A stretch of DNA of 64,000 nt from Burkholderiales bacterium (GCA_035762345.1 DASTPE010000079.1:408-64407), one strand, 5' to 3'. Shown: positions 4,201 to 64,000, counted from the first letter of the stretch. Translations and numbers: made by a program. Notes: generated by a model from the letters alone, not told the origin.

Positions 4201-4284
4201 GGCGTCCGCCGCGGCATTGAAGATGTCGCGGTAGCGCTCGCTTGCGCCGAGCACCTGCTGCAGGCCGTCTACCGGAAGCACCAC
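1246..4284 (-). CDS. cytoplasmic hybrid sensor histidine kinase (5x PAS - HisKA - HATPase - receiver)
   Basis: 1012-aa ORF. Five tandem PAS units, an H-box (IAHDFNNIL), ATPase boxes ([25 protein letters not shown]) and a C-terminal receiver (VLLVDDE...[12 protein letters not shown]). No hydrophobic TM segment. Confidence 0.93.
2409..4248 (-). repeat. intragenic tandem array of five PAS-encoding units (~370 bp period)
   Basis: The protein motif [22 protein letters not shown] recurs with a 123-125 aa period. The DNA string ggtactgctcctcgctc(g/a)c(g/a)cgcagcgc recurs at about 2748, 3118, 3489 and 3860. Confidence 0.8.
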
Positions 4285-49818: not shown

Positions 49819-50183
49819 GCGAGAAGAACGTGCTCGGCGGCGATCTGCTCGCCTGCAGCTACGATCCGCTCACCGGCTATTTCCGCGACGGCTGCTGCGC
49901 GACCCACGGGCAGGAAGGCGTCGCGCATCTCGTCTGCGTGCAGGTGACGCGCGAGTTCCTGGAATTCAGCGTCGCGCGCGGTAATGACCTCGTCACGCCG
50001 CGGCCCGAGCTACGCTTCCGGGGCCTGCAGCACGGCAACCGCTGGTGCCTGCACGTGCTGCGGTGGATCGAGGCATGGGAGGCGGGGCGCGCGCCGCGCG
50101 TGATCCTCGAGGCGACGCACGAGGACGTGTTGAACTACGTGCCGCTGTCCGCGCTCAAGCGCTATGCGCTCGACTTGAACTAA
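49815..50183 (+). CDS. DUF2237-family protein
   Basis: MSEKNVLGGDLLACSYDPLTGYFRDGCCAT...GNDLVTPRPE...NRWCLHVLRW. ATGA overlap with thrC. Confidence 0.75.
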   Translation: MSEKNVLGGDLLACSYDPLTGYFRDGCCATHGQEGVAHLVCVQVTREFLEFSVARGNDLVTPRPELRFRGLQHGNRWCLHVLRWIEAWEAGRAPRVILEATHEDVLNYVPLSALKRYALDLN

Positions 50184-50904
50184 GCTTCGCCAGCGCCTCG
50201 CGGTCGAGGATCGAGATCTCGCGGCGCGAAACCTCGATCACGCCTCCGGCGGCGAACTGGCGCAGCAGGCGCGACAGGGTTTCCTTCTTCACTCCGAGCC
50301 GCGCCGCGACCAGCGTCTTGCTGACCGGCAGGCGCACGACCGTACCGCCGTTGCCGTCGCTGTTACCTTCGGGAGAGTTTGCAAGCGCGCCGAGGTACGA
50401 CGCCAGGCGCTGCGCGCCGCGCTGCATCGCAGACTCGACTTCGGCAAGCAACTCGAGCGCGTGCTCGGCGAGCAGCAGCGCCACTGCGCGTCCAAAGCGC
50501 GCATCGCGGTCCATGAGAGCGAAGATCGCCGCTACCGGGATCACGACGAGCTTCGAGTCGACGAGCGCGATCGCCCCGCTGTGGCTGGGGCGCCCGAGGA
50601 GCGAGGTCGCTTCGCCGAACGTTTGCCCCGCAGGGACGAGATGGAGCACGCGCTCCTCGCCGTCCTGGCCACGCAGGCTGAGCTTCACCGCGCCATAGGC
50701 AAGTCCGAACACTCCCGGCAGCCTCGCGCCGCGCTCCACGATGATCGTGCCCCGCGGGGCGCTTATCACCCAGCACTGCTTGATGAGCGAGCCGAGTTGG
50801 GCGGGGGCTACGTCACGGAAGATGCGCAGTCGCGGCACAAGCCCCTGCACGAGCCGCGCGTCCAGAACTGCACTAGCCACCGGGCGAACTACCATGTCGT
50901 TCAT
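50155..50904 (-). CDS. Crp/Fnr-family transcriptional regulator (no Fnr-type Cys cluster)
   Basis: Trimmed to MNDMVVRP (alternative ATG at 50895). cNMP-like beta-roll, and an HTH whose recognition helix KETLSRLL carries the E--SR motif of FNR/Dnr-class proteins. Only one Cys in the protein. Confidence 0.88.
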   Translation of the reverse strand: MNDMVVRPVASAVLDARLVQGLVPRLRIFRDVAPAQLGSLIKQCWVISAPRGTIIVERGARLPGVFGLAYGAVKLSLRGQDGEERVLHLVPAGQTFGEATSLLGRPSHSGAIALVDSKLVVIPVAAIFALMDRDARFGRAVALLLAEHALELLAEVESAMQRGAQRLASYLGALANSPEGNSDGNGGTVVRLPVSKTLVAARLGVKKETLSRLLRQFAAGGVIEVSRREISILDREALAKLSSSRAHSA

Positions 50905-50931
50905 ATATTGCACCGCAGCAGCGGCGCCATG

Positions 50932-50945
50932 TTGACTTAAATCAA
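50932..50945. promoter_or_regulatory. FNR/Dnr-type box TTGACTTAAATCAA
   Basis: Read directly. The box centre is about 43 nt upstream of the regulator's second ATG (50895) and 144 nt upstream of the decahaem gene. Confidence 0.6.
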
Positions 50946-50979
50946 CGATGTCAGTGTCGCCGCTATTTCGCCGAACACT

Positions 50980-50993
50980 TTGATTTAAGTCAA
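50980..50993. promoter_or_regulatory. FNR/Dnr-type box TTGATTTAAGTCAA (exact reverse complement of the box at 50932)
   Basis: Read directly. The centre lies 48 bp from the first box and about 96 nt upstream of the decahaem ATG. Confidence 0.6.
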
Positions 50994-51082
50994 CGGGCAC
51001 ATTCGATTTCGCAAGCCTGATGGGCACCGCATCGGCATCATCAGCGAAACGCCGTATCGGTTTGTGTTTGAGGGAGGACCGA

Positions 51083-52054
51083 ATGGTTATAAGAACCGCG
51101 GCCTGCATCGCCGCTGCCCTAGTCATCGCCAGCGTGCCGGCGCATGCGCAGGCACCGGCACCGCGGAAACCGGCTCCGGAAGCCGAGGTCTGCAAGAACT
51201 GCCACGCCGACTACGTCGAAAGCTACTTCAGGACGAAGCACGGCCAGGGCGGCAATGCCTTAGGTCCCGACTGCAAGACCTGCCACCTGAATTCAGAGGC
51301 GCACGCCGCCGCGGGCGGCGGCAAAGGTGCAGGCGGCATCCTCGGGTTCAATGACAGGGCCCAGCCTGCCGAGCGCAGGGCCGGCGTCTGCCTGAGCTGC
51401 CACCAAGGCAACCGCCACCTCGCGTTCTGGGACTCAGGCCAGCACCGCAAGCAGGACGTCGCGTGCAACGACTGCCATAGTCTGCACGGCACGCCCGGGC
51501 CGGGCTCAACTATCGCGCTGAAGGCGCCGAATCCCAAGGTCAGTCCCTACGTGACGACCGAGCGGCAGCTGCAGTACGAGACTTGCACGACTTGCCATCG
51601 GCAGATCCGCTCGCAGCTCCACAAGCCGTCGCATCACCCGATCATCGAAGGCAAGCTCAAATGCACCGACTGCCATAACCCGCACGGAGCGCTGTCCAAG
51701 GCCATGGTCAACGCCGAGTCGATCCCGCAGCTATGCACGACCTGCCATGCCGAGAAGCGCGGGCCGTACGTGTGGGGCCATCCGCCGGTCGAGGAGAACT
51801 GCCTGACCTGCCACAACCCGCACGGCTCGAACCATAACCGCCTCCTTGCGGAGAAGGCGCCGAACGTTTGCCAGGACTGCCATGACGCCTCGCGCCACCC
51901 CGGGACGATCTACGACGGAAGCGGCGGCTGGAACTTCTTCCCGCCGTCTACGGCACCGAACACCCGGCTCATCTCGCGCGGCTGCATCAACTGCCACTAC
52001 CACATCCACGGCAGCAATGCTCCCGCCATGCGGGGCAAGTTCTTCCTGCGATAG
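51083..52054 (+). CDS. periplasmic decahaem c-type cytochrome, MtrA/MtoA/PioA/DmsE family
   Basis: Signal peptide MVIRTAACIAAALVIASVPAHAQ. Ten CxxCH motifs (CKNCH CKTCH CLSCH CNDCH CTTCH CTDCH CTTCH CLTCH CQDCH CINCH). About 320 aa. GAGGGAGGA lies before the ATG. Confidence 0.9.
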   Translation: MVIRTAACIAAALVIASVPAHAQAPAPRKPAPEAEVCKNCHADYVESYFRTKHGQGGNALGPDCKTCHLNSEAHAAAGGGKGAGGILGFNDRAQPAERRAGVCLSCHQGNRHLAFWDSGQHRKQDVACNDCHSLHGTPGPGSTIALKAPNPKVSPYVTTERQLQYETCTTCHRQIRSQLHKPSHHPIIEGKLKCTDCHNPHGALSKAMVNAESIPQLCTTCHAEKRGPYVWGHPPVEENCLTCHNPHGSNHNRLLAEKAPNVCQDCHDASRHPGTIYDGSGGWNFFPPSTAPNTRLISRGCINCHYHIHGSNAPAMRGKFFLR

Positions 52055-52063
52055 GAGGCGGAC

Positions 52064-54184
52064 ATGAAACCTAGACTCCTCTCGGTCCTGGTCGCAAATC
52101 TCTTCGTCGCCGCCGCACCTGCGCTCGCCCAGGACGCGATGGAAGTGTCCGGGTCGGTGAGCGCAGGAATCCGCTATATCGATAACAACGCGGCCGATCC
52201 CTCGAAGTTCACCGAGTACCGCGACCTGGAAGACGGCACCTCGGGTATTTTCGGGTTCGAGTTTCGCGGCCGCAGCCAGAACAATTATTTCAATGCCTAC
52301 GGCGAGAATCTCGGGAACGACGACCAGTACCTTGACTTGAATGGCGGCCGCTACCAGACGTTCAAGTACCGCATCTACAGCGACCACCTGCGGCACAACC
52401 TCGGCTCGGGCCCGGGCGCGCTTTCCCCCTTCTCCGGAATCGGCGGTGCAACTATCACTGCGCCTTTCCCCCTGCCCGCGGTGGGAACGTGGAACAGCTT
52501 TGACCATGCCTACAAGCGCCGTGATACCGGCGGCATGTTCGAATGGCAGAAGGCTTCGCCGTGGTATTTCCGCGTCGACGCGAACGAGATCCGGCGAGAT
52601 GGCATCAACGTTTATGCCGGGGCGAACGGGACGAGCCCGGGCAACGGCTTCACCGACCTGCCGGTGCCGATCGACTGGCTGACGCGCAACTACGCGGCCG
52701 AGGTCGGCTACTCGACCAAGCGCGGACATATGGCGGTCAACCTCAGCTACAGCACGTTCGAGAACGAGAACCAAGTGCTGCGCTGGTCGAACCGCTTTTT
52801 CGCCAACGGCCTGGACACCACGGTGCTGCCGCCGGATAACGACCTCATCCGCGTCGCGGTCAACGGCAACCTGAGACAGCTGCCGATCGATTCGACCCTC
52901 GCGGGGCGGTTCACCTACAGCAAGCTGACCAATTCCGTCCCGATGCAGCTCAACATGCTTTCCACCGGCGGCGCGTTCCCGGCCACGAATCCGAGCCAGG
53001 GTAACTTCGAGGGCGACGTCGTCAAGTACACCCTCGGGCTGGCGTTCAACTCCCGACCGACCCAGGCGCTCGACACCAAGGTCTATTACAACTGGATCAA
53101 GGAAGAGAACGACTCGACGCACATGAACTTCGTGCCGGGGACCGGTCTCACCGGCGGGACGTGCACGACTGTCGATTGCTCGAACCATCTCTTCGGGTAC
53201 GAAAAGCACCAGATCGGAGCCGAAGCGGGCTACCGCCTGACGCGTGCGAACAAGTTCACCGGCGGGCTCGAATGGACCGATATCGATCGCGAGCGCGAGG
53301 ATTTCGACCACAACGAAGAGTGGCGCGCGTTCGTCGAGTGGAAGAACAGCTCGTTCGACTGGATGACGTCGCGGATCAAGTACCAGTACATGGAGCGCAC
53401 TGGGGATTTCAACCCGAACATCCCCGTGCTTACCCAGAATCCCATGGATCTCTTCGTGCGGCGTTTCGACGTCGCGAACGTAGAGCAGAACCTGGTCAAG
53501 CTCGCCCTCGACTTCGCCCCGGCGCCGCTGTTCGACATCGGCGTCGAGGCGATCTACAAGGAGAACAAGTACAAGGACACGATCCTCGGCCGCACCGAGG
53601 ATACGCGCCACGAGCTTTACGGCAGCGTAAGCTACGGCGATCCGAAGAGGTGGCGGGTGCATCTCTTCGGTGACATCGAATACGTCAAGTTCGACTCGTT
53701 CCACCGCGTCGGCACCGGAAATCCCGATCCGGGTTCAGGATCGAACGCCACCACTTTCAACTGGGCTTCGAAGAACGAAGACGACTCCTGGCAGGTCGGC
53801 ATCGGCGCCGACTGGGCGGCGCTGCCGCGCCTGATGATCAAGGCCTCGCTCATCTACGCCGAGACCGATGGGCACACGGACTTTACGGTCGCGCCCGGCG
53901 GCCCGACGACCCCGTTCGCGCCGATCGAAGCGAGCGACGACACGACGCGGGTCTCGTTCAATCTCAAGGGGATCTATCAGCTCGACCGGCAGTGGGAGCT
54001 TACGGCCGGCTATGCCTACGAGAAATATCGCTATAGCGACATCGCCTACGACAATACGCGGTACGTGGCTCCCTTGCCGCCCGCAGGCCTTACTAACACT
54101 GCCTCGAGCATCGTCACCGGGCAGTTCTCGTTCCAGAACTACGAAGCGCACATCGCCTACCTCGTCGCGAAGTATCGCTTCTAG
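52064..54184 (+). CDS. MtrB/MtoB/PioB-family outer-membrane porin for the decahaem cytochrome
   Basis: 706 aa. Signal peptide ...AAAPALAQD. Gly/Asn/Tyr-rich amphipathic strand pattern throughout, C-terminal ...YLVAKYRF, and position directly after the decahaem gene. Confidence 0.85.
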   Translation: MKPRLLSVLVANLFVAAAPALAQDAMEVSGSVSAGIRYIDNNAADPSKFTEYRDLEDGTSGIFGFEFRGRSQNNYFNAYGENLGNDDQYLDLNGGRYQTFKYRIYSDHLRHNLGSGPGALSPFSGIGGATITAPFPLPAVGTWNSFDHAYKRRDTGGMFEWQKASPWYFRVDANEIRRDGINVYAGANGTSPGNGFTDLPVPIDWLTRNYAAEVGYSTKRGHMAVNLSYSTFENENQVLRWSNRFFANGLDTTVLPPDNDLIRVAVNGNLRQLPIDSTLAGRFTYSKLTNSVPMQLNMLSTGGAFPATNPSQGNFEGDVVKYTLGLAFNSRPTQALDTKVYYNWIKEENDSTHMNFVPGTGLTGGTCTTVDCSNHLFGYEKHQIGAEAGYRLTRANKFTGGLEWTDIDREREDFDHNEEWRAFVEWKNSSFDWMTSRIKYQYMERTGDFNPNIPVLTQNPMDLFVRRFDVANVEQNLVKLALDFAPAPLFDIGVEAIYKENKYKDTILGRTEDTRHELYGSVSYGDPKRWRVHLFGDIEYVKFDSFHRVGTGNPDPGSGSNATTFNWASKNEDDSWQVGIGADWAALPRLMIKASLIYAETDGHTDFTVAPGGPTTPFAPIEASDDTTRVSFNLKGIYQLDRQWELTAGYAYEKYRYSDIAYDNTRYVAPLPPAGLTNTASSIVTGQFSFQNYEAHIAYLVAKYRF

Positions 54185-54196
54185 TCCCCGCGTCGC

Positions 54197-54222
54197 GGCC
54201 CGGGTGGTCAACCGCCCGGGCC
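54197..54222 (+). promoter_or_regulatory. intercistronic GC stem-loop (8-bp perfect stem)
   Basis: GGCCCGGGtggtcaaccgCCCGGGCC, 13 nt after the porin stop. No T-run follows. TTATACAAT follows at about 54232. Confidence 0.45.
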
Positions 54223-54272
54223 CACGATGCGTTATACAATCCAATCGGCTCTACACCCCGGAGGGAGACTTC

Positions 54273-54554
54273 ATGAAAGCAAGCGTGCTTGTGATTGCCG
54301 CTGCGGCGGCGCTGGCGGCGGGTGCGGCGTATGCCCAGTCGGGCGCGGACGTGCTCAAGTCGAAGGGCTGTCTGAACTGCCACGAGGCCGACAAGAAGAA
54401 GGTCGGGCCTGCGTTCAAGGACATCGCGGCCAAGCAGAAGGGCAAGCAGGCCGAGCTGGTCGCGAAGCTAAAGGAAGGCAAGGGCCACCCGAAGATCGCC
54501 GCGTCGGACGCCGAGCTGAACGCTGCCGTGCAGGCGGTCCTCGCGACAAAATAG
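54273..54554 (+). CDS. MtoD-like class I monohaem cytochrome c (no Met in mature protein)
   Basis: Signal peptide MKASVLVIAAAAALAAGAAYAQS, a single CLNCH and a GKGHPK segment. The mature sequence contains no methionine. Confidence 0.85.
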   Translation: MKASVLVIAAAAALAAGAAYAQSGADVLKSKGCLNCHEADKKKVGPAFKDIAAKQKGKQAELVAKLKEGKGHPKIAASDAELNAAVQAVLATK

Positions 54555-54572
54555 TCTGAGAAGCGCCGCCGC

Positions 54573-55199
54573 TTGGATTCCCGGGTCGCACTCATAGCGC
54601 TCGCCGCGTCGGCGGCGCTCGTCATGCCTCAGCAGAGTGCGGCACAGGCGCGCAGCGGCAAGGAAGTCGTCGAGTCCACCTGCATTACCTGTCACGGCAG
54701 CGGCGCGCAGGGCGCGCCGAAGATCGGCGACCGCAAGGCCTGGAGCCAGCGCGCCAACCAGGGCTTGTCGAGCCTTACGCTGAGCGCGATCAAGGGGATC
54801 CGCAACATGCCGCCGCACGGCGGCAACACGGGTCTCACCGATCTCGAGCTCGCCCGCGGCGTCGCCTACATGGTGAACGCCTCGGGCGGCAAGTGGACCG
54901 AGCCTGCGAGCGCTACCGAGCTCAAGGCCGAGCGCGGCGGCGCGCAGGTGGTGAAGGCTCAGTGCTCCAAATGCCACCAGGACGGCAAGGGCGGGGCGCC
55001 GAAAATCGGCGATCGCGAAGCGTGGAGCAAGCGCCTCAACCAGGGAATCGACCGGGCGGTGAGCTCGGCGATCCACGGCCACGGCGGCATGCCGCCGCGC
55101 GGCGACAAGGCCGACCTGACCGACGGCGAAGTACGCGCCGCGATCCTCTACATGTTCAATCCGAAGACGCCGCCCAAGGCCGAGGCGAAGAAGAAGTAA
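54573..55199 (+). CDS. dihaem cytochrome c5-type protein
   Basis: Signal peptide. Two repeats of C(I/S)(T/K)CH...GAPKIGD(R)(K/E)AWSxR...MPP(H/R)G. Confidence 0.85.
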   Translation: MDSRVALIALAASAALVMPQQSAAQARSGKEVVESTCITCHGSGAQGAPKIGDRKAWSQRANQGLSSLTLSAIKGIRNMPPHGGNTGLTDLELARGVAYMVNASGGKWTEPASATELKAERGGAQVVKAQCSKCHQDGKGGAPKIGDREAWSKRLNQGIDRAVSSAIHGHGGMPPRGDKADLTDGEVRAAILYMFNPKTPPKAEAKKK

Positions 55200-55204
55200 G
55201 GCGG

Positions 55205-56341
55205 TTACTTGGCCGGCTGCGCGGCGTAGGTCGCGGACAGGCTTTCGATGATGCTGTCGCTGTAGGGCAGGCTCATCTTGTGCATCATCGAACTCTCGCG
55301 CCTGTCGTCCCGATAGGCTCTCAGTGCCATGATCAGGTAGTCCCGGTCCTGCCCTTTGATCTTGGGTACGACCATGCCCGGGATCTCGGCCTCTGCGCCA
55401 TGGCAGCGCTCGCAGCGCTCGGTGAGGTCTTTGACCAGGGTCTGGCCTTTCTCCGCAGCTTTCGATTTCTGCACCGAATAGAACGCGGCGATGTTCTGGA
55501 TGTCCTTTTCGCTCAGCCCGGTGACGTAGAGGCGCATGTTCTCCCGCTTGCGGGTCGTGCGGTAGGCCTTGATGGCGTCGACGAGGTAGCGCGCGTCCTG
55601 CCCCGCGAGGCTTGGCGTGCTGGTGTCGGTGCTTACGCCGTTCGCGCCGTGACATCCACCGCATACAGCGCTTAAAGGCTCGCCCGCCACCGGGTCGCCG
55701 AAAGCCGACACGCCGCGAGGCGTCGGCGCTTGGGAGGCGAAATAAAGCGCGAGGCTCTCCATGTCGAGCCTGGACATGCCCGGCAACAGGGCGTGCATTG
55801 GCGCCGCCTTGCGCTCCTTCTTCAGGTATTCCTGGATTGCGATGACGAGGTACTGCGGTTGCTGGCCGGCCAGGCTCGGCGTTCCGGAAATCTTGCTGTT
55901 GCCGTCGTCGCCATGGCACTTGGCGCAGGCGCTCGCCAGGGCCTTGCCCCGGTCATACGGGGAAACCTGCGTCGCGTCCTTTGCGGCGCCGGAGTCGACG
56001 GGCGGCAGGCTCGCGTAGTAAGCGGCGAGGTTGACTGCGTCCGGGTCGCTCATGTGCGCCGCGATTTCCCTCAGCGCCGCGTGCGTGCGCTTGCCTTCCT
56101 TGTAGGCCTTCAGCGCCGCCACGAGGTAGCGCTCGCGCTGAGCCGCCAGGTGCGGAATGGCCGGCGCGGTGCCTTTGCCGTCCAAGCCGTGGCATGCCTT
56201 GCATTCGCGCTCGGCGAAGGCCTTGCCCGCGGCAAGATCCACCGGGACCGGCTTCCCGACTCCCGCTTTCGTTGGCGCGGAATCCTGGTCGGTGCAGCCG
56301 AGCAGCGCGATCAATAGCAACCCCAGCTTGAGACTTTTCAT
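55205..56341 (-). CDS. tetrahaem c4-type cytochrome lipoprotein (four class I domains)
   Basis: Start at MKSLKLGLLLIALLGC (lipobox; GAGGAA 4 nt upstream). Motifs CKACH, CAKCH, CGGCH and CERCH, each followed by P(S/H)LAGQ...YL...Y..G.R. Confidence 0.85.
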   Translation of the reverse strand: MKSLKLGLLLIALLGCTDQDSAPTKAGVGKPVPVDLAAGKAFAERECKACHGLDGKGTAPAIPHLAAQRERYLVAALKAYKEGKRTHAALREIAAHMSDPDAVNLAAYYASLPPVDSGAAKDATQVSPYDRGKALASACAKCHGDDGNSKISGTPSLAGQQPQYLVIAIQEYLKKERKAAPMHALLPGMSRLDMESLALYFASQAPTPRGVSAFGDPVAGEPLSAVCGGCHGANGVSTDTSTPSLAGQDARYLVDAIKAYRTTRKRENMRLYVTGLSEKDIQNIAAFYSVQKSKAAEKGQTLVKDLTERCERCHGAEAEIPGMVVPKIKGQDRDYLIMALRAYRDDRRESSMMHKMSLPYSDSIIESLSATYAAQPAK

Positions 56342-56362
56342 GGATTCCTCGAGCACGATTGG

Positions 56363-57166
56363 TCAGCCGACGTCGGTAGCCTCGCCTTCCTGCCTCTGCA
56401 GGACCACCGATGGCGGATGGGAGAACCACATCTGGTACATCGACACCACCCACATGAAGGCGAATGACAGGCCCATCAGGGCGCCGCCGGCGATCACCAC
56501 CCAGGCGAACGGGTGGTACACCTTGGTGAAGTACCACGACCCGATGTCCATCGTGAGAGCGACGAACGGGAACGCGACGACGGTGCACTTGAACCAGACC
56601 GGCCGCACATAGGCGTGGCTGAAAATTGTTCCGAGGATGAAAAAGACAAAAGTCAGGCCGAAGAAGTGGATGTGCGAGACGCGCACGAGCGTGAAGAGGG
56701 CCGTACCGGTATCGCGCTCGATGACTTTCTGTACGTTGTCGTAGCCGTTCAGGTTCGGCAGGTGCGGATTGCTACCGTCGTGGCACGCCAGGCAGCGCCG
56801 GTCGAACGTCGTGCGGATCTCCTTTTCGTAGCGCGCGCGCTCGCCGCCTTCCTGCGCCCAGGAGACGAGCGTTGTGAGCTCCTCGCGTGGCAGCATTCCC
56901 GCCATCGATCCGCGCAGCGCCGCTTCGAGGCGCGAGCCCTTGCCGCTGCCGCTGTACGCGATCACCACGTCCTCGTAGGACAGCGTACGCGGATTGCCGT
57001 CCTTGCCGGAGTAGGTGTGGAACAAGTAAATCATGGCGAAGAGGTACGCAGTCCCGAGGATCAGCAAGGTCGCCGTATACAGCACGCGCAGGCTGTACGG
57101 CAGCTCCGAGAAATGCCGATAAAGGCGGTGCAGCGGCACGTCATTCACATTCGCGTCCTTTTTCAC
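56363..57166 (-). CDS. integral membrane protein with one CxxCH in a soluble loop (uncharacterised)
   Basis: GTG start overlapping the upstream stop (GTGA). One TM segment, then a roughly 110-aa loop containing RRCLACHDGSNPHLPNL, then three or four further TM segments. 267 aa. Confidence 0.7.
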   Translation of the reverse strand: MKKDANVNDVPLHRLYRHFSELPYSLRVLYTATLLILGTAYLFAMIYLFHTYSGKDGNPRTLSYEDVVIAYSGSGKGSRLEAALRGSMAGMLPREELTTLVSWAQEGGERARYEKEIRTTFDRRCLACHDGSNPHLPNLNGYDNVQKVIERDTGTALFTLVRVSHIHFFGLTFVFFILGTIFSHAYVRPVWFKCTVVAFPFVALTMDIGSWYFTKVYHPFAWVVIAGGALMGLSFAFMWVVSMYQMWFSHPPSVVLQRQEGEATDVG

Positions 57167-58359
57167 TTGCCGGCTTTCTTGCCCGCGGGTGCCGGCACGA
57201 TCACGTAAGTCACGGCACGGGCGGTCTGGCGCGCATAGTGGGCCGAGATATCCTTCACATCGCTCTCGCTCATTAATGCGGACATGGCGGCCATGGCCGT
57301 ACTCTTGCGCGCCCCCTTGCGGTAGTCGTGCAGCACCTGCTCGAGCCAGTCGGCGCGCTGCGCGGCGAGGCGCGGCATGAGCGGGTCGGTGCTGTTGCCG
57401 TTGGGACCGTGGCAGCGGTCGCAGCGCTCCGACCACTCAGCAAGCGTCAGCGGGCGGCGTACGTTGAGCGGCTGTGGCTGCTGGGCCGCGTAGTAGGCCG
57501 CGATGTCGTGCATCGCCTTCTCGTTGAGATCCGCCGCCGCTCCCTTCATCGATTCGTCCTTGCGCGAGCCGTCCTTGTACGCCTGGGTGGCAGCCGCCAG
57601 GTACTGCGCGTCCTGGCCGGCGAGGCTCGGTGTCGCCGGATTTCCGCTGACTCCCTGATCGCCGTGACAGGCGCCGCAGGCCGCCGCAGCCTTCTTGCCC
57701 GCTGCTGCGTCGCCGACGGCAGGGGTCTGCGCCCGAGCGGGTTTTTGTAGTGCATAGAAGAGCGCCAAGTTGCCCAGGTCGGCGTCGCTCACGCCCGCGG
57801 CCAGTGCCTTCATCATGTCGTTAGGGCGCTGGCCGCTCTTGTAGGCTGCCATCGCCGCAATAAGATACTTCGGATCGAGAGCGACCAGGCTCGGCATGCC
57901 GGGCATCGCGCTGACGCCGGCCTCTCCGTGGCAGGCTCCACAGGCCGCAGCCGCCGCCTTGCCCGCCTGCAACGGATCGGATTTGGCCGCAGCCGCTTTG
58001 CCGGGTGCCGCCGCGGGACGCGGCGGATCGAGGCTCGCGTAGTAGGCCGCCACTTTGACGAGCGCATCGTCGCTCAAGTACCGCACGATTCCGGTCATGG
58101 CGCCCTGCACGCGAGCGCCATGGCGATAGGCCCGTAGCTGGAGGTCGAGATACGCCGCGCGCTGCGCGGCGAGGTGCGGCACGCCCTTGGTTGCGCTTAC
58201 TCCGTTCGCGCCGTGACAGCGTGCGCAGGAGGCTTCCGCGATGCGCTTGCCCTCCGCGATCTCGACCGTCGTGGCATACACGGCCCGAAGCTCGTCCTCT
58301 GCAGGACTTGCGGCGAGTGCCGCAGTGCTGACCAGCAAGCCCGCCCACAGGATCTTCAT
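57163..58359 (-). CDS. tetrahaem c4-type cytochrome (four class I domains)
   Basis: C-terminal 398 aa of track ORF 57163..59466. Signal peptide MKILWAGLLVSTAALAAS. Motifs CARCH, CGACH, CGACH and CDRCH. ATGA overlap with the NrfD-like gene. Confidence 0.85.
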   Translation of the reverse strand: MKILWAGLLVSTAALAASPAEDELRAVYATTVEIAEGKRIAEASCARCHGANGVSATKGVPHLAAQRAAYLDLQLRAYRHGARVQGAMTGIVRYLSDDALVKVAAYYASLDPPRPAAAPGKAAAAKSDPLQAGKAAAAACGACHGEAGVSAMPGMPSLVALDPKYLIAAMAAYKSGQRPNDMMKALAAGVSDADLGNLALFYALQKPARAQTPAVGDAAAGKKAAAACGACHGDQGVSGNPATPSLAGQDAQYLAAATQAYKDGSRKDESMKGAAADLNEKAMHDIAAYYAAQQPQPLNVRRPLTLAEWSERCDRCHGPNGNSTDPLMPRLAAQRADWLEQVLHDYRKGARKSTAMAAMSALMSESDVKDISAHYARQTARAVTYVIVPAPAGKKAGK

Positions 58360-59531
58360 GATGCGGTCTTGTGCTCCCAAGGGGGAAGGAGCCGGGTGAT
58401 TCCCAGCAATACAACCAATGGCGCAACGACCAGCGCGAGGGCACTGATCAAGCCTTCCTTGCCGAAGATCTGCATCGGGTACTCGAGCAGCCCCTTGCCC
58501 GTCTTCGAGATCTCTTGGCCGCCGATGACGACGTTCCAGCGCATCATGAACACTGAGAGCAGCACCAGGCAGGCGCTCAGCGTGACGCCCAAGACCAGCG
58601 CTCTGCCCGCGGTGCCGCGCCAGATCATATAGGACAGCCACGCAAGCGGCACGATCGCACCGATACCGAATTGCAGCACGAAGTACGGGATCAGGAGCGG
58701 CCCGGTCACATAGGCCATGATCATCTCGATGCCTTCCCGGGCCTTGTAGACGATGTTGGCGAATTCCAGCCCCTCGAGAACGAAGGCAACGATGATGAAT
58801 GCCCACACGGTATAGGCGAGGCCCTTCACGCACGCGAGATCGATCGGGACCCTGCGCAACTTGCACGACAGCACATAGAGCACGATGAGCAGCGCCACGC
58901 CGGAGATGATGGCCGAGAACAGGAACACGAGCGGCATCAGGTCCGAAGACCACCACTCGCGCGACTTGAGGGAGCCGAACACGAAACCGACGTAGCCGTG
59001 CAGGCCGTGCGCGCCGGGGATGCCGGCGATCGCCAGCCAGAAGATCCATTTCCGGTCGACGCGCAAGGCGCCCTCCGAAACGTCGTACGAGCCGAGCGTG
59101 AGCACGCGGTAGAACGCGCCCAAAGGTCCTTTTCTCTTCTGCGCCTGCGCCACGATATAGGGGCGAAACGCGAACCACGTCTCCACGATCAGCAGCACGA
59201 TGTAAAAAGTCGCGAAGTAGCCGAAGGCCGCCATGGCCGAGGTCCAATGCGGCGTGAGCAGGTTGTTGAAGGCGCGCTCGGGATGGCCAAGATGCAAAAG
59301 CAGCGGCAGCGGCACGAATAACATGAAGCACAGCGAGGTCAGGAGCGCGAGGTGGGCAACGGGCTTCAGGCGCTCGAAACCGAACACCTGGTAGAGGCTC
59401 GACACCGTAAACGCCCCGGCGACCAGGCCGGTGATGTACGGGTAGACGACGATGGCCACCGACCATTCGATCACGGTCTCGTTCGGGTACACCCAGCCGG
59501 CGTAGGGAGCATAGTGGATGAGAGGTTCCAC
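58356..59531 (-). CDS. NrfD/PsrC/ActC-family quinone-interacting membrane subunit
   Basis: 391 aa with about 10 TM segments. N-terminus MEPLIHYAPYAGWVYPNETVIEWSVAIVVYPYITGLVAG is typical of polysulfide-reductase NrfD-type proteins. Confidence 0.88.
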   Translation of the reverse strand: MEPLIHYAPYAGWVYPNETVIEWSVAIVVYPYITGLVAGAFTVSSLYQVFGFERLKPVAHLALLTSLCFMLFVPLPLLLHLGHPERAFNNLLTPHWTSAMAAFGYFATFYIVLLIVETWFAFRPYIVAQAQKRKGPLGAFYRVLTLGSYDVSEGALRVDRKWIFWLAIAGIPGAHGLHGYVGFVFGSLKSREWWSSDLMPLVFLFSAIISGVALLIVLYVLSCKLRRVPIDLACVKGLAYTVWAFIIVAFVLEGLEFANIVYKAREGIEMIMAYVTGPLLIPYFVLQFGIGAIVPLAWLSYMIWRGTAGRALVLGVTLSACLVLLSVFMMRWNVVIGGQEISKTGKGLLEYPMQIFGKEGLISALALVVAPLVVLLGITRLLPPWEHKTAS

Positions 59532-60361
59532 TAGCTCACCTCCTTGTCGATGCCGACATAGAACACGTTCGGCCCATTGCCGGTCTCCGGCTTGAGCACG
59601 TGTACGCGGTTGTTGCGGACGAACAGGCTAATCGCGCTTTGCTTGTCGTTGAGATCACCGAAGACGCGTGCGCCGACCGGACAAGCGTCGACGCAGGCGG
59701 GCTGCAGGCCGCTGGTGATGCGGTGATAGCACCACGTGCACTTGTCGGATACGCCCTTTTCTTCGTCGAAGAAGCGCGCGCCGTAGGGACAGGCCTGCAC
59801 GCAGTACCGGCAGCCGATGCAGTATTCATGGTCGATGAGCACCACCCCGTCTTTGGCCTTGTAGGTCGCGCCGACCGGGCACACCTGCACACAGGGCGGG
59901 TGCTCGCACTGGTTGCACAGCTTGGGGACGAAGAAGGCCTTCTCGACTTTCGCGTTCTGGTAGCGGTTGGCGAACCGGTACTCGCGCTGCGAGCCGGAGG
60001 CGGCGATGTTGACCGGGTCGGCGTGGCTGTCGATGCGCGGCCTCGCTTCTCCCTCCAGGTAGACGTAGCGCTCCACCCAGGTGCGGAAATGATGCGCGGT
60101 GAGCGGCACCTTGTTCTCGACCTTGCACGCCTCGACGCAACGCAGGCAGCCGATGCATTTCGTGGCGTCGACGCCGAAAGCCCAGCGGTGCTTCGTCCAG
60201 TCGTAGTCCGCCGTCGGAAAGGATTTCGGGGGCGTAACCGATTCGGTTTTCGCGCCGACTTTGGCGAGCGATGCCGCCGTGCCCGCAGCTACGGCAGCAG
60301 CGCCGAGCTTGCGCAGAAAGTGGCGCCTGGCAAGCAATCCGCTGATTGCCTCGCGCTTCAC
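59531..60361 (-). CDS. Tat-exported 4x[4Fe-4S] ferredoxin subunit (NrfC/PsrB/ActB2-like)
   Basis: GTG start overlapping the upstream stop. Twin-arginine leader LLARRHFLRKLGAAAVAAG. Four Cys clusters (CIGCLRCVEAC, CNQCEHPPCVQVCP, CIGCRYCVQACP, CTWC...CVDACP). No molybdopterin-like domain. Confidence 0.88.
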   Translation of the reverse strand: MKREAISGLLARRHFLRKLGAAAVAAGTAASLAKVGAKTESVTPPKSFPTADYDWTKHRWAFGVDATKCIGCLRCVEACKVENKVPLTAHHFRTWVERYVYLEGEARPRIDSHADPVNIAASGSQREYRFANRYQNAKVEKAFFVPKLCNQCEHPPCVQVCPVGATYKAKDGVVLIDHEYCIGCRYCVQACPYGARFFDEEKGVSDKCTWCYHRITSGLQPACVDACPVGARVFGDLNDKQSAISLFVRNNRVHVLKPETGNGPNVFYVGIDKEVS

Positions 60362-61386
60362 GGCTTCTTCCCGCAGCCCTGCGCGGCGTAGTACGCGGCG
60401 AGGTTCGCGATGTCGGCGTCGCTCAGGCCCCTGACGACGCCGGCCATCATCGGATCCTTGCGCAGGCCGGCCCTGAACGCCTTGAGGGTGTTCGCGAGGT
60501 ACACCGCCTTCTGGGCGGCGATGTTCGGCCACCCGGGATTTGCTCCGACGCCCGTCTCGCCGTGACAAGCGGAGCAGTTCTTCGCCAGAGCCTTGCCCGC
60601 CGCGGCGTCGCCCGTCGCGCTTGCGCTCGCCGCGGGCTTGCAGCTCAAGGCAGCGTAGTAGGCGGCGAGATCCTGGATCTCCGCATCGCTCAAGGTCTTC
60701 GCCACCGGCGACATCATGACGTCGGACTGGGCGCCGGACCTGTAGGCACCGAGGATGGCGACCAGGTAGGCGGCGTTCTGGCCTGCCAGGTTGGGCCAGC
60801 TGTCGTTCGGGCTGATTCCATCGGCGCCGTGGCAGCCGGCACAGCTCTCCGCGTGCTTCCTAGCGCCCGAGGCGGCGTCGCCGCCCGCCGGCGCCACGAC
60901 GCCGGCGAGCTTCGGCGCATGCGGGTTGTGGCAGACGGCGCATTGCTGGCCCGCGCCGTGCTGGGCGAGATCGATCTGCGGCTGCGTGCGCGGCCTCTCG
61001 GCCATGCGCTCATGGCACAGAGCGCAGAGCCGCCGGGTGTCGGAAGGAACCGGCAGCTTTCCCTCCTGCGGATGCTTCTGCGCCGCGCCATGACAGACTT
61101 CGCACGCCACCGTTTTGTGGTTCGCGGCAGACCACTGGGCGTGGCGCTCGCTGTGGCAGCCCTGGCAATAGGCCGAGGTCCGGAACACCGGCTCGTGGGC
61201 CGCGATCTCGGCCACTGAGCCGGCGCGGTAGTGGCCGAACTCATAGAAGGACTCGGCAGTGAAATACCACTTCGCGACCAGGGCGGCGGCAAACCCCGCA
61301 CCCAGCAGCACGAGCAGTCGGAAGACGTGCCTAGGCAGCGCCGGCCCCCAGCCATAAAGTGAACTCCCGTCCCCCGACCGTAGCAA
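60358..61386 (-). CDS. membrane-anchored hexahaem cytochrome c (4-haem NrfB/ActA-like module + two c4-type domains)
   Basis: TTG start and an N-terminal TM segment (FRLLVLLGAGFAAALVA). Motifs CQGCH, CEVCH, CALCH and CAVCH (paired-CxxCH type), then CAGCH and CSACH in class I domains. Confidence 0.85.
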   Translation of the reverse strand: MLRSGDGSSLYGWGPALPRHVFRLLVLLGAGFAAALVAKWYFTAESFYEFGHYRAGSVAEIAAHEPVFRTSAYCQGCHSERHAQWSAANHKTVACEVCHGAAQKHPQEGKLPVPSDTRRLCALCHERMAERPRTQPQIDLAQHGAGQQCAVCHNPHAPKLAGVVAPAGGDAASGARKHAESCAGCHGADGISPNDSWPNLAGQNAAYLVAILGAYRSGAQSDVMMSPVAKTLSDAEIQDLAAYYAALSCKPAASASATGDAAAGKALAKNCSACHGETGVGANPGWPNIAAQKAVYLANTLKAFRAGLRKDPMMAGVVRGLSDADIANLAAYYAAQGCGKKP

Positions 61387-61429
61387 GCCGCTCCCGACGC
61401 CGCTTGATCTACGTCAAAGGGGAAGGACT

Positions 61430-63589
61430 TCAGCCGGCGCGCACGAGGAAGCCCCGCAGTACGAGCAGGAGCAGAATCAGCCCGATCGTTATCAGGACAA
61501 AGCCGAGGAAGGCCGAGCCGATCGTCATCGGCCGCGATGGCGCGTTCACCAGGTGCTTCTCGAGCTCGCCGGACTTCTTCAGCCGTTCGTACTCGAGCGC
61601 GTGCTCACGCCTGAACTCGTCGAGCGACACCGAGCCCGTGAACATTACGATGTCGAGCGGGAACTTGTCCGGCCGGAAGTGGTTGTTGAAGAAGTGCACC
61701 GTGAACAGGAAGACCGCGGCGAGCACCGCCTCTTCTCCGTGCACGATGGTGGCGACGTTGAATATCCATCCCGGCAGGATCGACGCCGTGGCCTCGGGGA
61801 CTGCGAGCATGAAGCCGCTGCCGCCGATGATCGCCATGCCCCAGAACACCGCCCAGTAGTCGAACTTCTCCCAGTAGGTCCAGCGGTCGAATTGCGGGCG
61901 CGGCCGCATGCCGACGAACCACTGGAACATGGCGATGATGTCCTGCAGGTCCTGCCAGTTCGGCACCAGCGAGTTTGGCCCGAACCAATCGAACGTGCGC
62001 AAGCGCGGCAGGATGCGCGCGCCCACCACATAGACCAGGTGGATGAAGAAGATCCCAAGCATGAGGGTGGCGGCGACGCGGTGCACGACCGCGGCCTCTT
62101 TCGGGCTGCCGAACATGCGCACCACAAGCTGCGCCCAGGGCATCTCGGCGAAGAACACCGCCATCCCGGTGAGGACAAGCGTCATCACGCTAATCGCGAA
62201 GATGAGGTGCGCAAGCCGCCACATCGGCGCGAAGCGCTGGAACTGCTTGCCCTGCGGGTGCAGATGCAGGCCGACGACATGCGGGCTCGTCTTTCCTTCC
62301 TTGCGATCGCGCCATTCGCGGTAGAACCAGAGCGCGGTGTGCGTCCAGAAGAAAACGAACACGCCGATGAGCAGCGCGACCATGAACTTGGTTGCGACCC
62401 ACACCTGCGGATAACGCTCGAAGTCATACGGCGTGGCGTGCGGCTGAAAGCTCACGAAGCCCGGGGTCGCGTTCTTGTGGCACTGCTGGCAGGTCGCGAG
62501 GCGATTGTTGGGATGAACGCGTGAGGCGGGATCGGCTACGCGCTGCACGTTATGCCCGCTGTGGCAGTCGGAGCACTTGGCGGTATACGCGTAGCCCAGC
62601 CGGTGCACCTGGCCGTGATAGGTGTGGATGTAGGTGCGGTAGCTCTCGACGTGGCAGTTGCCGCAGTTCTGCGTGATCGCCACTTTCGTGGACGCTGCCG
62701 CCGGCGACTGGATGTCGTGCGTGGTGTGGCAGTCGGAGCAGATCGCCGCCACCGGGTTTCCTTTTTGCAGCACTTCGACGCCATGCACGGAGTTCTTGTA
62801 GACGCCGACCTGCTTCTCGTGGCACTTGCCGCAGACCAGCGGAATGCTCAGGCGCCAGTCGGCGCGCCCGGTGCTGCCGATCGGGTAAATGTAATGCGCA
62901 TCGTGGCAGTTGTAGCAGGTCGCGTTGGTGCGCGACTGGTCGTCGCGCCGCGGCCGCGCGTGCACCGACTTGAGATAGCGGTCGATCTGCTCGACCACCA
63001 CGCCGAGGCGCTCGTAGTCCTTCCTGCGGTCCTCTTCCAGGGTCCTCCACGTGTCCTGGTGGCACTGGATGCAGCCCACGCGGATCGGGCCGGTGCGCTT
63101 GTGCGGGATCTCGGTGATGTCGGTGTGGCACTCGACGCATCGGCGCTTCGCATGCACGCTGAGCTCGAACTTCTCCTTCACCACGTGGAGCGGGCGCGGC
63201 CTGCCATCGGGTCCGGGCATGGTAAAGCCCTCGTTGCCGTGGCAGCCGAAGCAGGTCGCGTTGTCGAGCGGCATCGCCGGTGCCGCGGCGGCTTCGGGTT
63301 TCGGCTTTCCAGCGGGCTTCTGCTGCAAGTACGCGACGATGGCCTGCAGCTCTCCTGCGCTGGCGTCGACCGGCATCGGATGGCCCTTGCCGGCGCGCAG
63401 CGCGCCGATCAGCTTGGATTCGGCGCCCCGGTACTTCGCCGCGGCCTCCCGCAGCGCCGGGCCCATCTTCTTCTCGTCCAACGCGTGGCAGCCGAGGCAA
63501 CCTTTCGACTGCAGAAGCGCCTCGCCGGATTGCGCACGCGCAAGCGGCGTGAATGCAATCAACGCCGCCGCCAGGACCCAGACCCGCAT
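61430..63589 (-). CDS. decahaem c-type cytochrome fused to a C-terminal 6-TM cytochrome b-like domain (CbcL-like)
   Basis: Trimmed to MRVWVLAAALIAFTPLARAQ (GGAGG upstream). One class I domain (CLGCH) plus nine further CxxCH motifs, then six hydrophobic helices with conserved His (RLAHL, VVHRV, FIHL, IVHGEE, TVHFFNNH). 719 aa. Confidence 0.85.
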   Translation of the reverse strand: MRVWVLAAALIAFTPLARAQSGEALLQSKGCLGCHALDEKKMGPALREAAAKYRGAESKLIGALRAGKGHPMPVDASAGELQAIVAYLQQKPAGKPKPEAAAAPAMPLDNATCFGCHGNEGFTMPGPDGRPRPLHVVKEKFELSVHAKRRCVECHTDITEIPHKRTGPIRVGCIQCHQDTWRTLEEDRRKDYERLGVVVEQIDRYLKSVHARPRRDDQSRTNATCYNCHDAHYIYPIGSTGRADWRLSIPLVCGKCHEKQVGVYKNSVHGVEVLQKGNPVAAICSDCHTTHDIQSPAAASTKVAITQNCGNCHVESYRTYIHTYHGQVHRLGYAYTAKCSDCHSGHNVQRVADPASRVHPNNRLATCQQCHKNATPGFVSFQPHATPYDFERYPQVWVATKFMVALLIGVFVFFWTHTALWFYREWRDRKEGKTSPHVVGLHLHPQGKQFQRFAPMWRLAHLIFAISVMTLVLTGMAVFFAEMPWAQLVVRMFGSPKEAAVVHRVAATLMLGIFFIHLVYVVGARILPRLRTFDWFGPNSLVPNWQDLQDIIAMFQWFVGMRPRPQFDRWTYWEKFDYWAVFWGMAIIGGSGFMLAVPEATASILPGWIFNVATIVHGEEAVLAAVFLFTVHFFNNHFRPDKFPLDIVMFTGSVSLDEFRREHALEYERLKKSGELEKHLVNAPSRPMTIGSAFLGFVLITIGLILLLLVLRGFLVRAG

Positions 63590-63613
63590 ACCCCCGCCTC
63601 CCCGGTGGATTAT

Positions 63614-63627
63614 TTGACGCCCATCAA
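63614..63627. promoter_or_regulatory. FNR/Dnr-type box TTGACGCCCATCAA
   Basis: Read directly, in the divergent region between the CbcL-like operon and the hemerythrin gene. Confidence 0.6.
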
Positions 63628-63670
63628 TAATGGACCCGGGCGCCGACCGCCAGCAAGTTCCCCACCGCCT

Positions 63671-63684
63671 TTGACCAGGATCAA
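63671..63684. promoter_or_regulatory. FNR/Dnr-type box TTGACCAGGATCAA
   Basis: Read directly. The centre lies 57 bp from the previous box and 41.5 nt upstream of the hemerythrin ATG. Confidence 0.6.
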
Positions 63685-63718
63685 TCCTCCGCCAGCGCAC
63701 GCTGGTAGCGTCCAAGCC

Positions 63719-64000
63719 ATGGCAGCGCTCAATCCAATCGCCGTGTGGCACGAGGAGCACGTCTACTTTAACCAGCTGCTGCACCTCCTGCAGCGCGAGG
63801 TCGACGTGTTTCACACCGGAAACCGGCCGAACTACGAGCTGATGTTCGACATCGTCTCGTACCTGCGCGAATACTCCGACCGGTTCCATCACCCGCGCGA
63901 GGACGAGGCGTTCGCGCGCTTGGCGAAGCGCTGCCCGCACATGGAGCTGCCGCTTGCGCGTCTCGCGCAGGAGCACCGCGTGATCGCGCAGTCGGGCGAG
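63719..64000 (+). CDS. hemerythrin (HHE cation-binding) domain protein, 3' end outside window
   Basis: Hand-translated open frame running to the window edge: MAALNPIAVWHEEHVYFNQLLHLLQREVDVFHTGNRPNYELMFDIVSYLREYSDRFHHPREDEAFARL...QEHRVI. H/E ligand spacing is typical of hemerythrin-like proteins. Absent from the track because it is unterminated. Confidence 0.7.
   Translation, partial: MAALNPIAVWHEEHVYFNQLLHLLQREVDVFHTGNRPNYELMFDIVSYLREYSDRFHHPREDEAFARLAKRCPHMELPLARLAQEHRVIAQSGE

Follow-up and report, generated by a model that had tools for sequence, protein, structure and literature searches.

The route by which outer-membrane electron conduits of the MtoAB/MtrAB type are joined to the quinone pool is an open question, above all in iron oxidisers, where the model for strain ES-1 was revised in 2026. 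It is raised again by a 64-kb stretch of DNA from a Burkholderiales bacterium (GCA_035762345.1, DASTPE010000079.1:408-64407), the whole of which was analysed and is called the window below. At positions 50155-64000, a plus-strand operon for an MtoAB-type conduit converges with a minus-strand operon of seven redox genes, and the question is how the second could serve the first. Based on the comparisons described here, we read the whole as a chromosomal, hypoxia-regulated Mto-type extracellular electron-transfer locus, with a probability of roughly 0.55. Every module in it has a known relative, and the locus introduces no new principle. The MtoABCD core belongs to a known kind; what sets the whole apart is the conserved block of genes attached to it, a fusion of MtoD with MtoC, and a probable FNR-type regulon.

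Gene calls and the count of CxxCH haem-binding motifs were made by open reading frame (ORF) listing, motif counting and six-frame translation of the window. They reproduced the genes and coordinates of an earlier note on this DNA (Table 1), together with its tally of 38 motifs in eight haem genes (10+1+2+4+1+4+6+10). These genes hold 38 of the 39 CxxCH in the six-frame translation, and no other ORF of at least 60 amino acids in the window carries one. The family assignments of the note also held in profile and PDB searches, with 'c5' kept as a putative label for the dihaem and with the start codon of one gene, for a hexahaem cytochrome, uncertain.

The conduit and its inner-membrane partner

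MtoA passes the DmsE/MtrA-family model TIGR03508 (225 bits, cut-off 192.2) and matches Paired_CXXCH at 5e-31. MtoB, whose gene begins 9 nucleotides (nt) downstream of mtoA, is matched over its full length by PF11854 (E=3.2e-77; protein residues 43-706, profile positions 3-635 of 635) and falls marginally under the cut-off of TIGR03509 (232.6 against 240 bits). By these matches the two are, as had been proposed, an outer-membrane porin-cytochrome pair of the MtrAB/MtoAB/PioAB type. A scan of ORFs for CxxCH found no surface cytochrome of the MtrC/OmcA type within the window. The two cytochromes encoded next are an MtoD-like monohaem, with PDB matches to cytochrome c551 (9e-10) and MtoD (4XXL, 1.3e-6), and a dihaem with two Cytochrome_CBB3 domains (2.9e-28) and two MPP(H/R)G motifs. 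The dihaem gene also adjoins mtoD in L002, L041, L049, L083 and L089, where L-numbers denote the relatives' loci compared with the window.

The inner-membrane partner is predicted at the head of the convergent operon, in a decahaem-cytochrome b gene for which we use the shorthand decaB. Its product begins with a monohaem domain of the MtoD type, which a Pro/Ala linker joins to a nonahaem domain, and ends in an FdnI-like dihaem-b domain. The N-terminal ~90 residues (63290-63589, minus strand) are 49% identical to the stand-alone MtoD-like protein, and the His of their 'GHP' motif is invariant among homologues whereas the neighbouring Met is variable. The mature stand-alone protein contains no Met; the conserved His of its 'KGHP' motif is a candidate distal ligand in a bis-His arrangement because of this invariance in the paralogous domain. 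MtoD is bis-His ligated by His47 and His95 (PMC4412085). The nonahaem part of decaB has nine CxxCH motifs and nine further conserved His. The b domain has six predicted transmembrane segments, and His417, 461, 503, 517, 617, 632 and 637 of the protein are invariant. The domain matches Ni_hydr_CYTB at 4.8e-5 (23.6 bits, under the cut-off of 30.1) and the formate dehydrogenase gamma model TIGR01583 weakly, at 1.5e-4, but end to end over residues 450-671. In a Foldseek search with a model of mean predicted local distance difference test score (pLDDT) 58, the top and sole convincing match was FdnI (1KQF_C; probability 1.00, TM 0.68).

Published MtoC, of the CbcL/MtrH/MtoC family, joins nine c haems in one domain to a b domain that is HydC/FdnI-like and has six transmembrane helices (PMC6295460). 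This description equals the architecture of decaB, which clusters with mtoA, mtoB and mtoD, and for this reason we assign decaB to the MtoC type. The protein is 51-54% identical to homologues in metagenome-assembled genomes (MAGs) of Gallionella, Sideroxydans and Rhodoferax, some of which adjoin mtoD and mtoA. MtoC and MtrH proteins are 55-59% identical to one another and ~35% to CbcL (PMC6295460), and we took the 51-54% found with the Gallionella and Sideroxydans homologues as matching that intra-clade range. Set beside the founding members by published description and by the identity range of MAG homologues, decaB is by its sequence a member of the CbcL/MtrH/MtoC family, a known inner-membrane partner. 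Relatives are found in at least 591 species genomes, the nearest named ones in Gallionella, Sideroxydans, Sulfuritalea and Thiobacillus MAGs. Many homologues are annotated at JGI as 'cytochrome c551/c552/cytochrome b subunit of formate dehydrogenase', which shows that the fusion is common. The fusion itself argues that MtoD-type domains work directly with MtoC.

The earlier note had seen an empty CymA slot in this locus. No NapC/NirT protein is indeed encoded in the window, but the inner-membrane slot is filled by the known partner, since decaB is of the MtoC type. The note had also equated MtoC with a NapC/NirT tetrahaem, which disagrees with the published nonahaem c and b fusion (PMC6295460, PMC5566968), and it had treated the b-type fusion as an unrecognised quinone module, a view that the CbcL/MtrH/MtoC architecture of decaB does not support.

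The closest known arrangement is found in the mtoABCD clusters of Gallionella capsiferriformans ES-2 and Dechloromonas aromatica RCB, where MtoA and MtoB, a class I monohaem MtoD and a nonahaem-b MtoC are encoded together (PMC5566968, PMC6295460, PMC8805035). Unlike in these clusters, mtoC of the window stands on the opposite strand, carries a fused MtoD-type domain and heads an operon with six more redox genes, and an extra dihaem cytochrome gene follows mtoD. Geobacter sulfurreducens CbcL shares with decaB the nine bis-His c haems followed by a six-transmembrane HydC/FdnI-like b domain, and it likewise is a quinone-pool partner in extracellular electron transfer (PMC6295460, PMC13591261). 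CbcL differs in standing alone, with no MtoD domain and no adjoining porin-cytochrome pair.

The genes behind decaB

As stated earlier, all but two junctions of the minus-strand operon are overlaps, and the operon ends 5 nt from the end of the plus-strand operon (TAA GGCGG TTA). The four overlaps are GTGA, TAGTG, ATGA and GTGA; of the gaps, one of 43 nt separates decaB from the hexahaem gene, and one of 6-21 nt separates mem1, our shorthand for the gene of a membrane protein with one CxxCH, from the gene of a c4 lipoprotein. Five genes are translationally coupled, namely those for the hexahaem, a 4x[4Fe-4S] protein, an NrfD subunit and a c4 tetrahaem, and mem1; the lipoprotein gene follows.

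The hexahaem starts with an N-terminal helix (a single transmembrane segment, residues 20-38), after which come a compact domain with four haems and, at the C-terminus, a dihaem domain of the c4 type; residues 169-333 match cytochrome c4 structures at 5.8e-23. Pfam, family models and a domain profile returned no NapC/NirT, NrfH, NrfB or NetB match for the tetrahaem domain, and only weak generic multihaem matches. A hidden CymA was considered and ruled out: PF03264 was absent, and a profile of the transmembrane segment plus tetrahaem domain retrieved no NapC/NirT/NrfH structure. Elsewhere in the window, the CxxCH scan gave no NapC/NirT candidate. In the start region of the gene (61338-61417), the annotated start is a TTG, and homologues begin with 'MPKH' where the window has CTG; an ATG does follow a GGGAG there, though not in the gene's frame. 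The start is uncertain because the homologues' start corresponds to CTG here and a predicted FNR-type box (below) lies near the annotated TTG.

The iron-sulphur protein (276 residues) carries the twin-arginine motif RRHFLRKLG and, as read from the sequence, 16 Cys in four cluster motifs. It matches Fer4_11 at 5e-28, passes the DsrO model marginally (203 bits, cut-off 200) and stays well under the cut-off for TtrB (218 against 416); its PDB matches are PsrB (2VPW, 3.8e-44), ArrB (1.9e-40) and ActB (3.9e-25). The NrfD subunit is matched by PF03916 over residues 21-339 (E=1.6e-34) and has about 8-9 transmembrane helices. Its matches to the DsrP and NrfD models are weak, and no solved relative was found by single-sequence or profile search, so that it may be PsrC-like or ActC/DsrP-like.

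Translational coupling ties the c4 tetrahaem gene to both of its neighbours, NrfD upstream and mem1 downstream. Its product and the lipoprotein are paralogues, 40% identical, each composed of two c4-type units. The former matches the PdsA-like dihaem model at 3e-34 (~115 bits, far under the cut-off of 330), and the latter matches cytochrome c4 in the PDB at 6e-21; c4 matches of the lipoprotein and the hexahaem C-terminus together span 6e-21 to 6e-23. By these matches, tandem class I domains make up dihaem units as in cytochrome c4. With ten c4-like domains in total beside two different quinone-type membrane modules, the operon has the composition described before. In the first c4 domain of the lipoprotein (~residues 80-100), Leu occupies the usual position of the distal Met and a His lies three residues earlier, whereas the other three domains keep Met; one lipoprotein haem may be differently ligated because of this replacement.

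The mem1 protein was assigned to PF27139 ('Aq_1264_TM') through the precomputed Pfam hit on all of its close homologues, mem1 itself not being scored directly. The predicted topology is one transmembrane helix, a periplasmic CxxCH domain and three further helices, with the CxxCH domain, an HxH motif and an Asp all on the periplasmic side; the S-H165-x-H167 motif lies at the periplasmic end of the second helix. Conserved throughout the family, in members down to 26% identity, are the CxxCH, Met88 (35 of 38), His165 (34 of 38), His167 (all 38), Asp207 (37 of 38) and a few Gly and Trp. The family comprises 718 clusters at 50% identity, whose source names are all 'hypothetical', and the literature searched contained nothing on Aq_1264 or PF27139. 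A periplasmic-side quinone or metal site in mem1 is possible but speculative. Two other roles were ruled out. As a transmembrane dihaem-b wire the protein would depend on His13, 18, 184 and 218, which are kept among close relatives only and lost family-wide, and it does not share the features of PCC3/PCC4-type inner-membrane proteins, in which five transmembrane helices are found together with two HX13H motifs (PMC5566968).

Modules that combine a multihaem c, a 4x[4Fe-4S] protein and an NrfD-like subunit are also known from NrfBCD, Nhc, Qrc and alternative complex III (PMC8076601), and several systems resemble the block. In Aeromonas hydrophila, the NrfC-like, NrfD-like and multihaem c proteins of NetBCD form a quinol dehydrogenase which, with the c4-like dihaem periplasmic shuttle PdsA, feeds the MtrCAB conduit (PMC8805035); it is the PdsA model that the window's c4 tetrahaems match. 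The window has the Tat-exported NrfC-like protein and the NrfD-family subunit, but its hexahaem is not the NrfB/NetB-like pentahaem partner, MtrC is absent, and tetrahaems, one of them a lipoprotein, take the place of the dihaem. Geobacter Cbc4 (CbcS-CbcT-CbcU) likewise brings together a multihaem c anchored in the membrane, a 4x[4Fe-4S] protein and a subunit integral to the membrane, and a role as quinone:cytochrome c oxidoreductase in extracellular electron transfer has been proposed for it (10.1101/2025.04.14.648717). CbcS, however, has a NapC/NirT-like tetrahaem core, for which the window's hexahaem gave no match, whereas the hexahaem has an extra c4 dihaem domain; Cbc4 also lacks associated c4 tetrahaems and an Aq_1264_TM protein.

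In DsrMKJOP and Hmc-type systems, a dihaem-b subunit and a trio of multihaem c, 4x[4Fe-4S] and NrfD-like proteins occur in one operon or complex, and quinone cycling between the two modules of DsrMKJOP has been proposed (PMC8076601). The operon described here encodes neither a cytoplasmic subunit of the DsrK/HmcF type nor a NarI-like DsrM, and of these models only that of DsrO is passed, marginally; its FdnI-like b domain forms part of a fusion with a cytochrome c, and its context is MtoAB rather than dsr. Alternative complex III (ActABCDEF) is similar in its transmembrane-anchored multihaem, iron-sulphur subunit, NrfD-like subunit and lipid-anchored cytochrome c exit. The window differs in that its iron-sulphur protein corresponds to the ferredoxin part only, with no molybdopterin-like ActB1, that it has one NrfD-like gene instead of two (ActC, ActF) and no ActD, and that the cytochromes are different.

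The earlier note had not recognised the combination as a described system. In the literature searched, MtoC was not found combined with NrfC, NrfD or cytochrome c4, nor was a block of hexahaem, iron-sulphur protein, NrfD, c4 tetrahaem, Aq_1264_TM protein and c4 lipoprotein attached to mtoC described, and to that extent the seven-gene set and its Aq_1264_TM protein stand as undescribed. The pairing of modules is not new in kind, as NrfCD modules serving an Mtr conduit (NetBCD) and b-type modules combined with NrfCD (DsrMKJOP) have precedents.

Recurrence, control and electron flow

Two neighbourhood samples were compared with the window, one of 80 species loci seeded with decaB and one of 80 metagenome contigs seeded with mem1. 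This search, which the earlier note had suggested, found that the seven-gene set recurs, in exactly the window's order in four loci (L001, L002, L081 and L083) and shuffled elsewhere, in modules of Alpha- and Gammaproteobacteria (Hyphomicrobiales, Xanthobacteraceae, Gammaproteobacteria). The decaB and c4 lipoprotein genes occur together in 35 of the 80 species loci; in 24 the c4 tetrahaem and mem1 join them, and in 9 more the NrfCD trio does. An MtoA-like gene lies within 10 kb of the decaB homologue in 29 of the 80, and MtoA/MtoB-like genes lie within that distance of the shuffled sets in L012, L018, L040 and L093. On the metagenome contigs, the c4 tetrahaem gene is directly upstream of mem1 in 37 of 47 informative loci, and the lipoprotein gene adjoins mem1 in 30 of 48 cases; in many loci of the comparison it adjoins decaB or mem1 homologues. 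Two Gallionella MAG loci (L057, L061) have the order mtoC-mtoD-mtoA.

The known partner MtoC is accompanied by a conserved group of genes in many Burkholderiales that are uncultured, and likewise in MAGs and contigs of other Beta-, Gamma- and Alphaproteobacteria from soil and groundwater. The group, under predicted FNR/FixK-type control, contains two c4 tetrahaems, a haem protein of the membrane that is uncharacterised, and often an NrfCD-type module. Haem, iron-sulphur and His ligand motifs are kept across relatives at 26-90% identity. A chance juxtaposition or decaying remnant of cytochrome genes with no joint function is highly improbable: all reading frames of the locus are intact, the ligand motifs are conserved over that range, there is translational coupling at four junctions, relatives share the synteny and the regulator boxes, and no point in its support was found.

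Two of the relatives have further redox genes nearby. In L081 (GCA_004297625.1, SCTY01000043.1; 320-6941, 19500-22196), the seven-gene operon adjoins a complete ccmABCDEFGHI haem-maturation cluster and is followed by two response-regulator genes, then by a second multihaem cytochrome and a separate cytochrome b gene. In L012, a complete gammaproteobacterial MAG chromosome (OY970328.1), an ORF of 833 amino acids (1502-4003, minus strand), which contains 10 CxxCH and matches none of the window's proteins, sits between the MtoA-like decahaem gene and the mem1/c4 tetrahaem pair.

Predicted FNR/FixK-type boxes stand at all three transcription-unit starts of the locus, and a Crp/Fnr regulator gene is adjacent. 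The consensus TTGAYNNNNRTCAA (TTGAY-N4-RTCAA), expected 0.09 times in 64 kb, has five exact matches in the window, none of them outside the locus (Table 1). Their placement at the same three types of site is kept in relatives of three proteobacterial classes, alphaproteobacterial loci included: upstream of mtoA homologues in L041, L018, L040 and L049, directly upstream of hexahaem homologues in L001, L002, L081, L007, L018, L021 and L040, and upstream of decaB homologues in L001, L041, L081, L014, L015, L021, L040, L068 and L049. The regulator matches HTH_Crp_2 (6.7e-17) and cNMP_binding (2.2e-14), and its best NCBIfam match is FtrB, at 89 bits and under the cut-off. It has the recognition motif E--SR (KETLSRLL) and one Cys in total, and for the latter reason is not a [4Fe-4S] FNR. 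Because both convergent operons carry such boxes, they form one probable low-oxygen regulon. The centre of the box in the 43-nt gap lies only ~24 nt upstream of the hexahaem's annotated TTG; this box is a candidate internal promoter element and suggests that the six-gene block has its own promoter. A scan of the window for consensus promoters and terminators was at chance level and uninformative.

Within such a locus, MtoAB would pass electrons across the outer membrane, and the soluble MtoD-like and dihaem cytochromes, perhaps with the c4 tetrahaems, would bridge the periplasm. MtoC would join a low-potential chain of bis-His haems to the quinone through its dihaem b domain. The five coupled genes may encode one membrane complex resembling Cbc4, NetBCD or DsrJOP (multihaem c, NrfC and NrfD), which would exchange electrons between the quinone pool and high-potential c4 haems. 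Cytochromes of the c4 and class I kinds are generally high-potential, and the c4 haems of this unit probably are so too. Through MtoC and the five-gene complex, MtoAB could be connected to the quinone pool by two routes that differ in potential, with an alternative exit from the c4 proteins to a terminal oxidase. The idea of two branches is reasonable because the Mto pathway of ES-1, in its 2026 revision, shows branched high- and low-potential periplasmic routes, in which ImoA, the quinone reductant, is served by PmcA and not by the high-potential MtoD (PMC13390432). The locus offers a testable candidate for the inner-membrane end of such a branched pathway, as well as a gene-fusion argument for the cooperation of MtoD-type domains with MtoC.

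Several observations pull in the other direction. The operon occurs with no MtoAB within 10 kb in L001 and L081, and in L002 (9100-12200) the full seven-gene operon, mtoD and the dihaem gene are present with no mtoAB at the corresponding position, so the link of operon and conduit is frequent, not obligatory. We infer the single complex of the five coupled products from gene overlap alone. The structure model of decaB is of low confidence (pLDDT 58), and the AlphaFold model of mem1 (pLDDT 49.6) was too poor for use and was not taken to a fold search. The characterised relatives of both membrane modules (CbcL, Cbc4 and NetBCD) act in metal reducers, and control of the FNR type would suit anaerobic reduction and microaerobic oxidation alike.

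The first of these points bears on whether the minus-strand operon belongs to the conduit at all. It could be a general respiratory module for hypoxia, an alternative quinol:cytochrome c oxidoreductase whose c4 cytochromes supply a cbb3 oxidase or denitrification enzymes; its proximity to MtoAB would then stem from shared regulation and not from a dedicated wire. Apart from the loci just named, this is favoured by the close relative L041 (CAWENY010000021.1, 9300-16900), in which mtoA-mtoB-mtoD-dihaem converge with mtoC and the six-gene block is absent. The modules are separable, as L041 and L002 indicate, and on this comparison conduit and operon are gained and lost independently. The block also has its own FNR-type box, c4 cytochromes are classical donors to cbb3 oxidases, and the PDB matches of the hexahaem and lipoprotein include c4 in the cbb3 entries 8SMR/8SNH. 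In three proteobacterial classes, nevertheless, the block is found linked time after time to mtoC, mtoD, the dihaem gene and genes of the MtoA/B kind. At its head the operon has MtoC in fusion with an MtoD-type domain, and the convergent ends are only 5 nt apart. With these features a purely respiratory role is quite unlikely, and we retain the reading of a joint Mto-type locus.

The direction of electron flow in that locus, as the earlier note had said, cannot be read from the sequence. Uptake, by oxidation of Fe(II), minerals or reduced humics at low oxygen, is favoured only slightly, at close to even odds, because MtrC is absent and MtoD and the c4/class I cytochromes are present. The opposite would be anaerobic reduction of metals or humics, in which MtoC and the hexahaem-FeS-NrfD module oxidise quinol and electrons leave through the periplasmic cytochromes and MtoAB. 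FNR/FixK boxes are typical of anaerobic respiration. CbcL, whose nine haems are bis-His ligated and low-potential, is a quinol oxidase required for low-potential acceptors (PMC13591261), and decaB retains the nine distal His; NetBCD with PdsA sets a precedent for supplying a conduit in this direction (PMC8805035), and the CbcL/MtrH/MtoC family, known from bacteria that oxidise Fe(II) and from others that reduce Fe(III), is considered bidirectional (PMC6295460). Yet the window has no MtrC/OmcA-type surface cytochrome, the MtoD-type cytochrome (+155 mV in ES-1, PMC4412085) and the ten c4-type domains, usually high-potential, would be poor donors to a low-potential decahaem, and the nearest named relatives are those in Gallionella, Sideroxydans, Sulfuritalea and Thiobacillus MAGs. 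We hold such a reductive role to be rather unlikely.

A wider proposal is put forward tentatively, as possible but short of probable. The products of the five coupled genes, the MtoD-MtoC fusion and the c4 lipoprotein might form an undescribed, hypoxia-induced supercomplex of the inner membrane, at which Mto conduits would chiefly end on the cytoplasmic membrane in Proteobacteria that live uncultured in soil and groundwater, with the Aq_1264_TM protein supplying a new periplasmic-side quinone or metal site and in effect taking the role of CymA. The genes also provide new markers for environmental surveys of extracellular electron transfer.

Gene calls and surroundings

Table 1. Genes and predicted regulator boxes of the locus, in window coordinates
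Feature	Position	Strand	Basis or site
Crp/Fnr-family regulator (FixK/FtrB-like)	50155-50904	-	Pfam
Two predicted FNR/FixK-type boxes: TTGACTTAAATCAA at 50932, TTGATTTAAGTCAA at 50980	50932-50993		divergent regulator/mtoA intergenic region
mtoA, periplasmic decahaem, signal peptide, 10 CxxCH	51083-52054	+	DmsE/MtrA-family model
mtoB, MtrB/PioB-family outer-membrane porin, 706 amino acids	52064-54184	+	PF11854
MtoD-like class I monohaem, 1 CxxCH	54273-54554	+	PDB sequence matches
Periplasmic dihaem class I cytochrome c, 2 CxxCH	54573-55199	+	Cytochrome_CBB3 domains
c4-type tetrahaem lipoprotein, 4 CxxCH, lipobox LLGC	55205-56341	-	PDB c4 matches
mem1, inner-membrane haem-c protein, PF27139 'Aq_1264_TM', 1 CxxCH	56363-57166	-	homologues' Pfam assignment
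c4-type periplasmic tetrahaem, 4 CxxCH	57163-58359	-	Pfam Cytochrom_C, CBB3
NrfD/PsrC-family integral membrane subunit	58356-59531	-	PF03916
Tat-exported NrfC/PsrB/DsrO-like 4x[4Fe-4S] ferredoxin	59531-60361	-	Fer4_11, motifs
Transmembrane-anchored hexahaem, 6 CxxCH, start codon uncertain (TTG at 61386 or further downstream)	60358-61386	-	
Predicted FNR/FixK-type box TTGATCTACGTCAA	61404-61417		43-nt decaB/hexahaem gap
decaB, MtoD-MtoC fusion (decahaem-b gene), 10 CxxCH	61430-63589	-	domain architecture, CbcL/MtrH/MtoC family
Two predicted FNR/FixK-type boxes: TTGACGCCCATCAA, TTGACCAGGATCAA	63614-63684		divergent decaB/hemerythrin intergenic region
Hemerythrin HHE-domain protein, cut by window end	63716-64000	+	PF01814, 7.5e-8

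The hemerythrin gene is divergent from decaB, and its position is kept in L041, L083 and L112. The rest of the window is ordinary chromosome, with genes for RND efflux, DnaB, RNase R, PhoH, homoserine dehydrogenase and threonine synthase, and the GC content is uniform throughout. A hybrid sensor kinase of 1012 amino acids, with at least five PAS domains and a receiver, is encoded at the far end of the window (1246-4284, minus strand) and has no apparent link to the locus.

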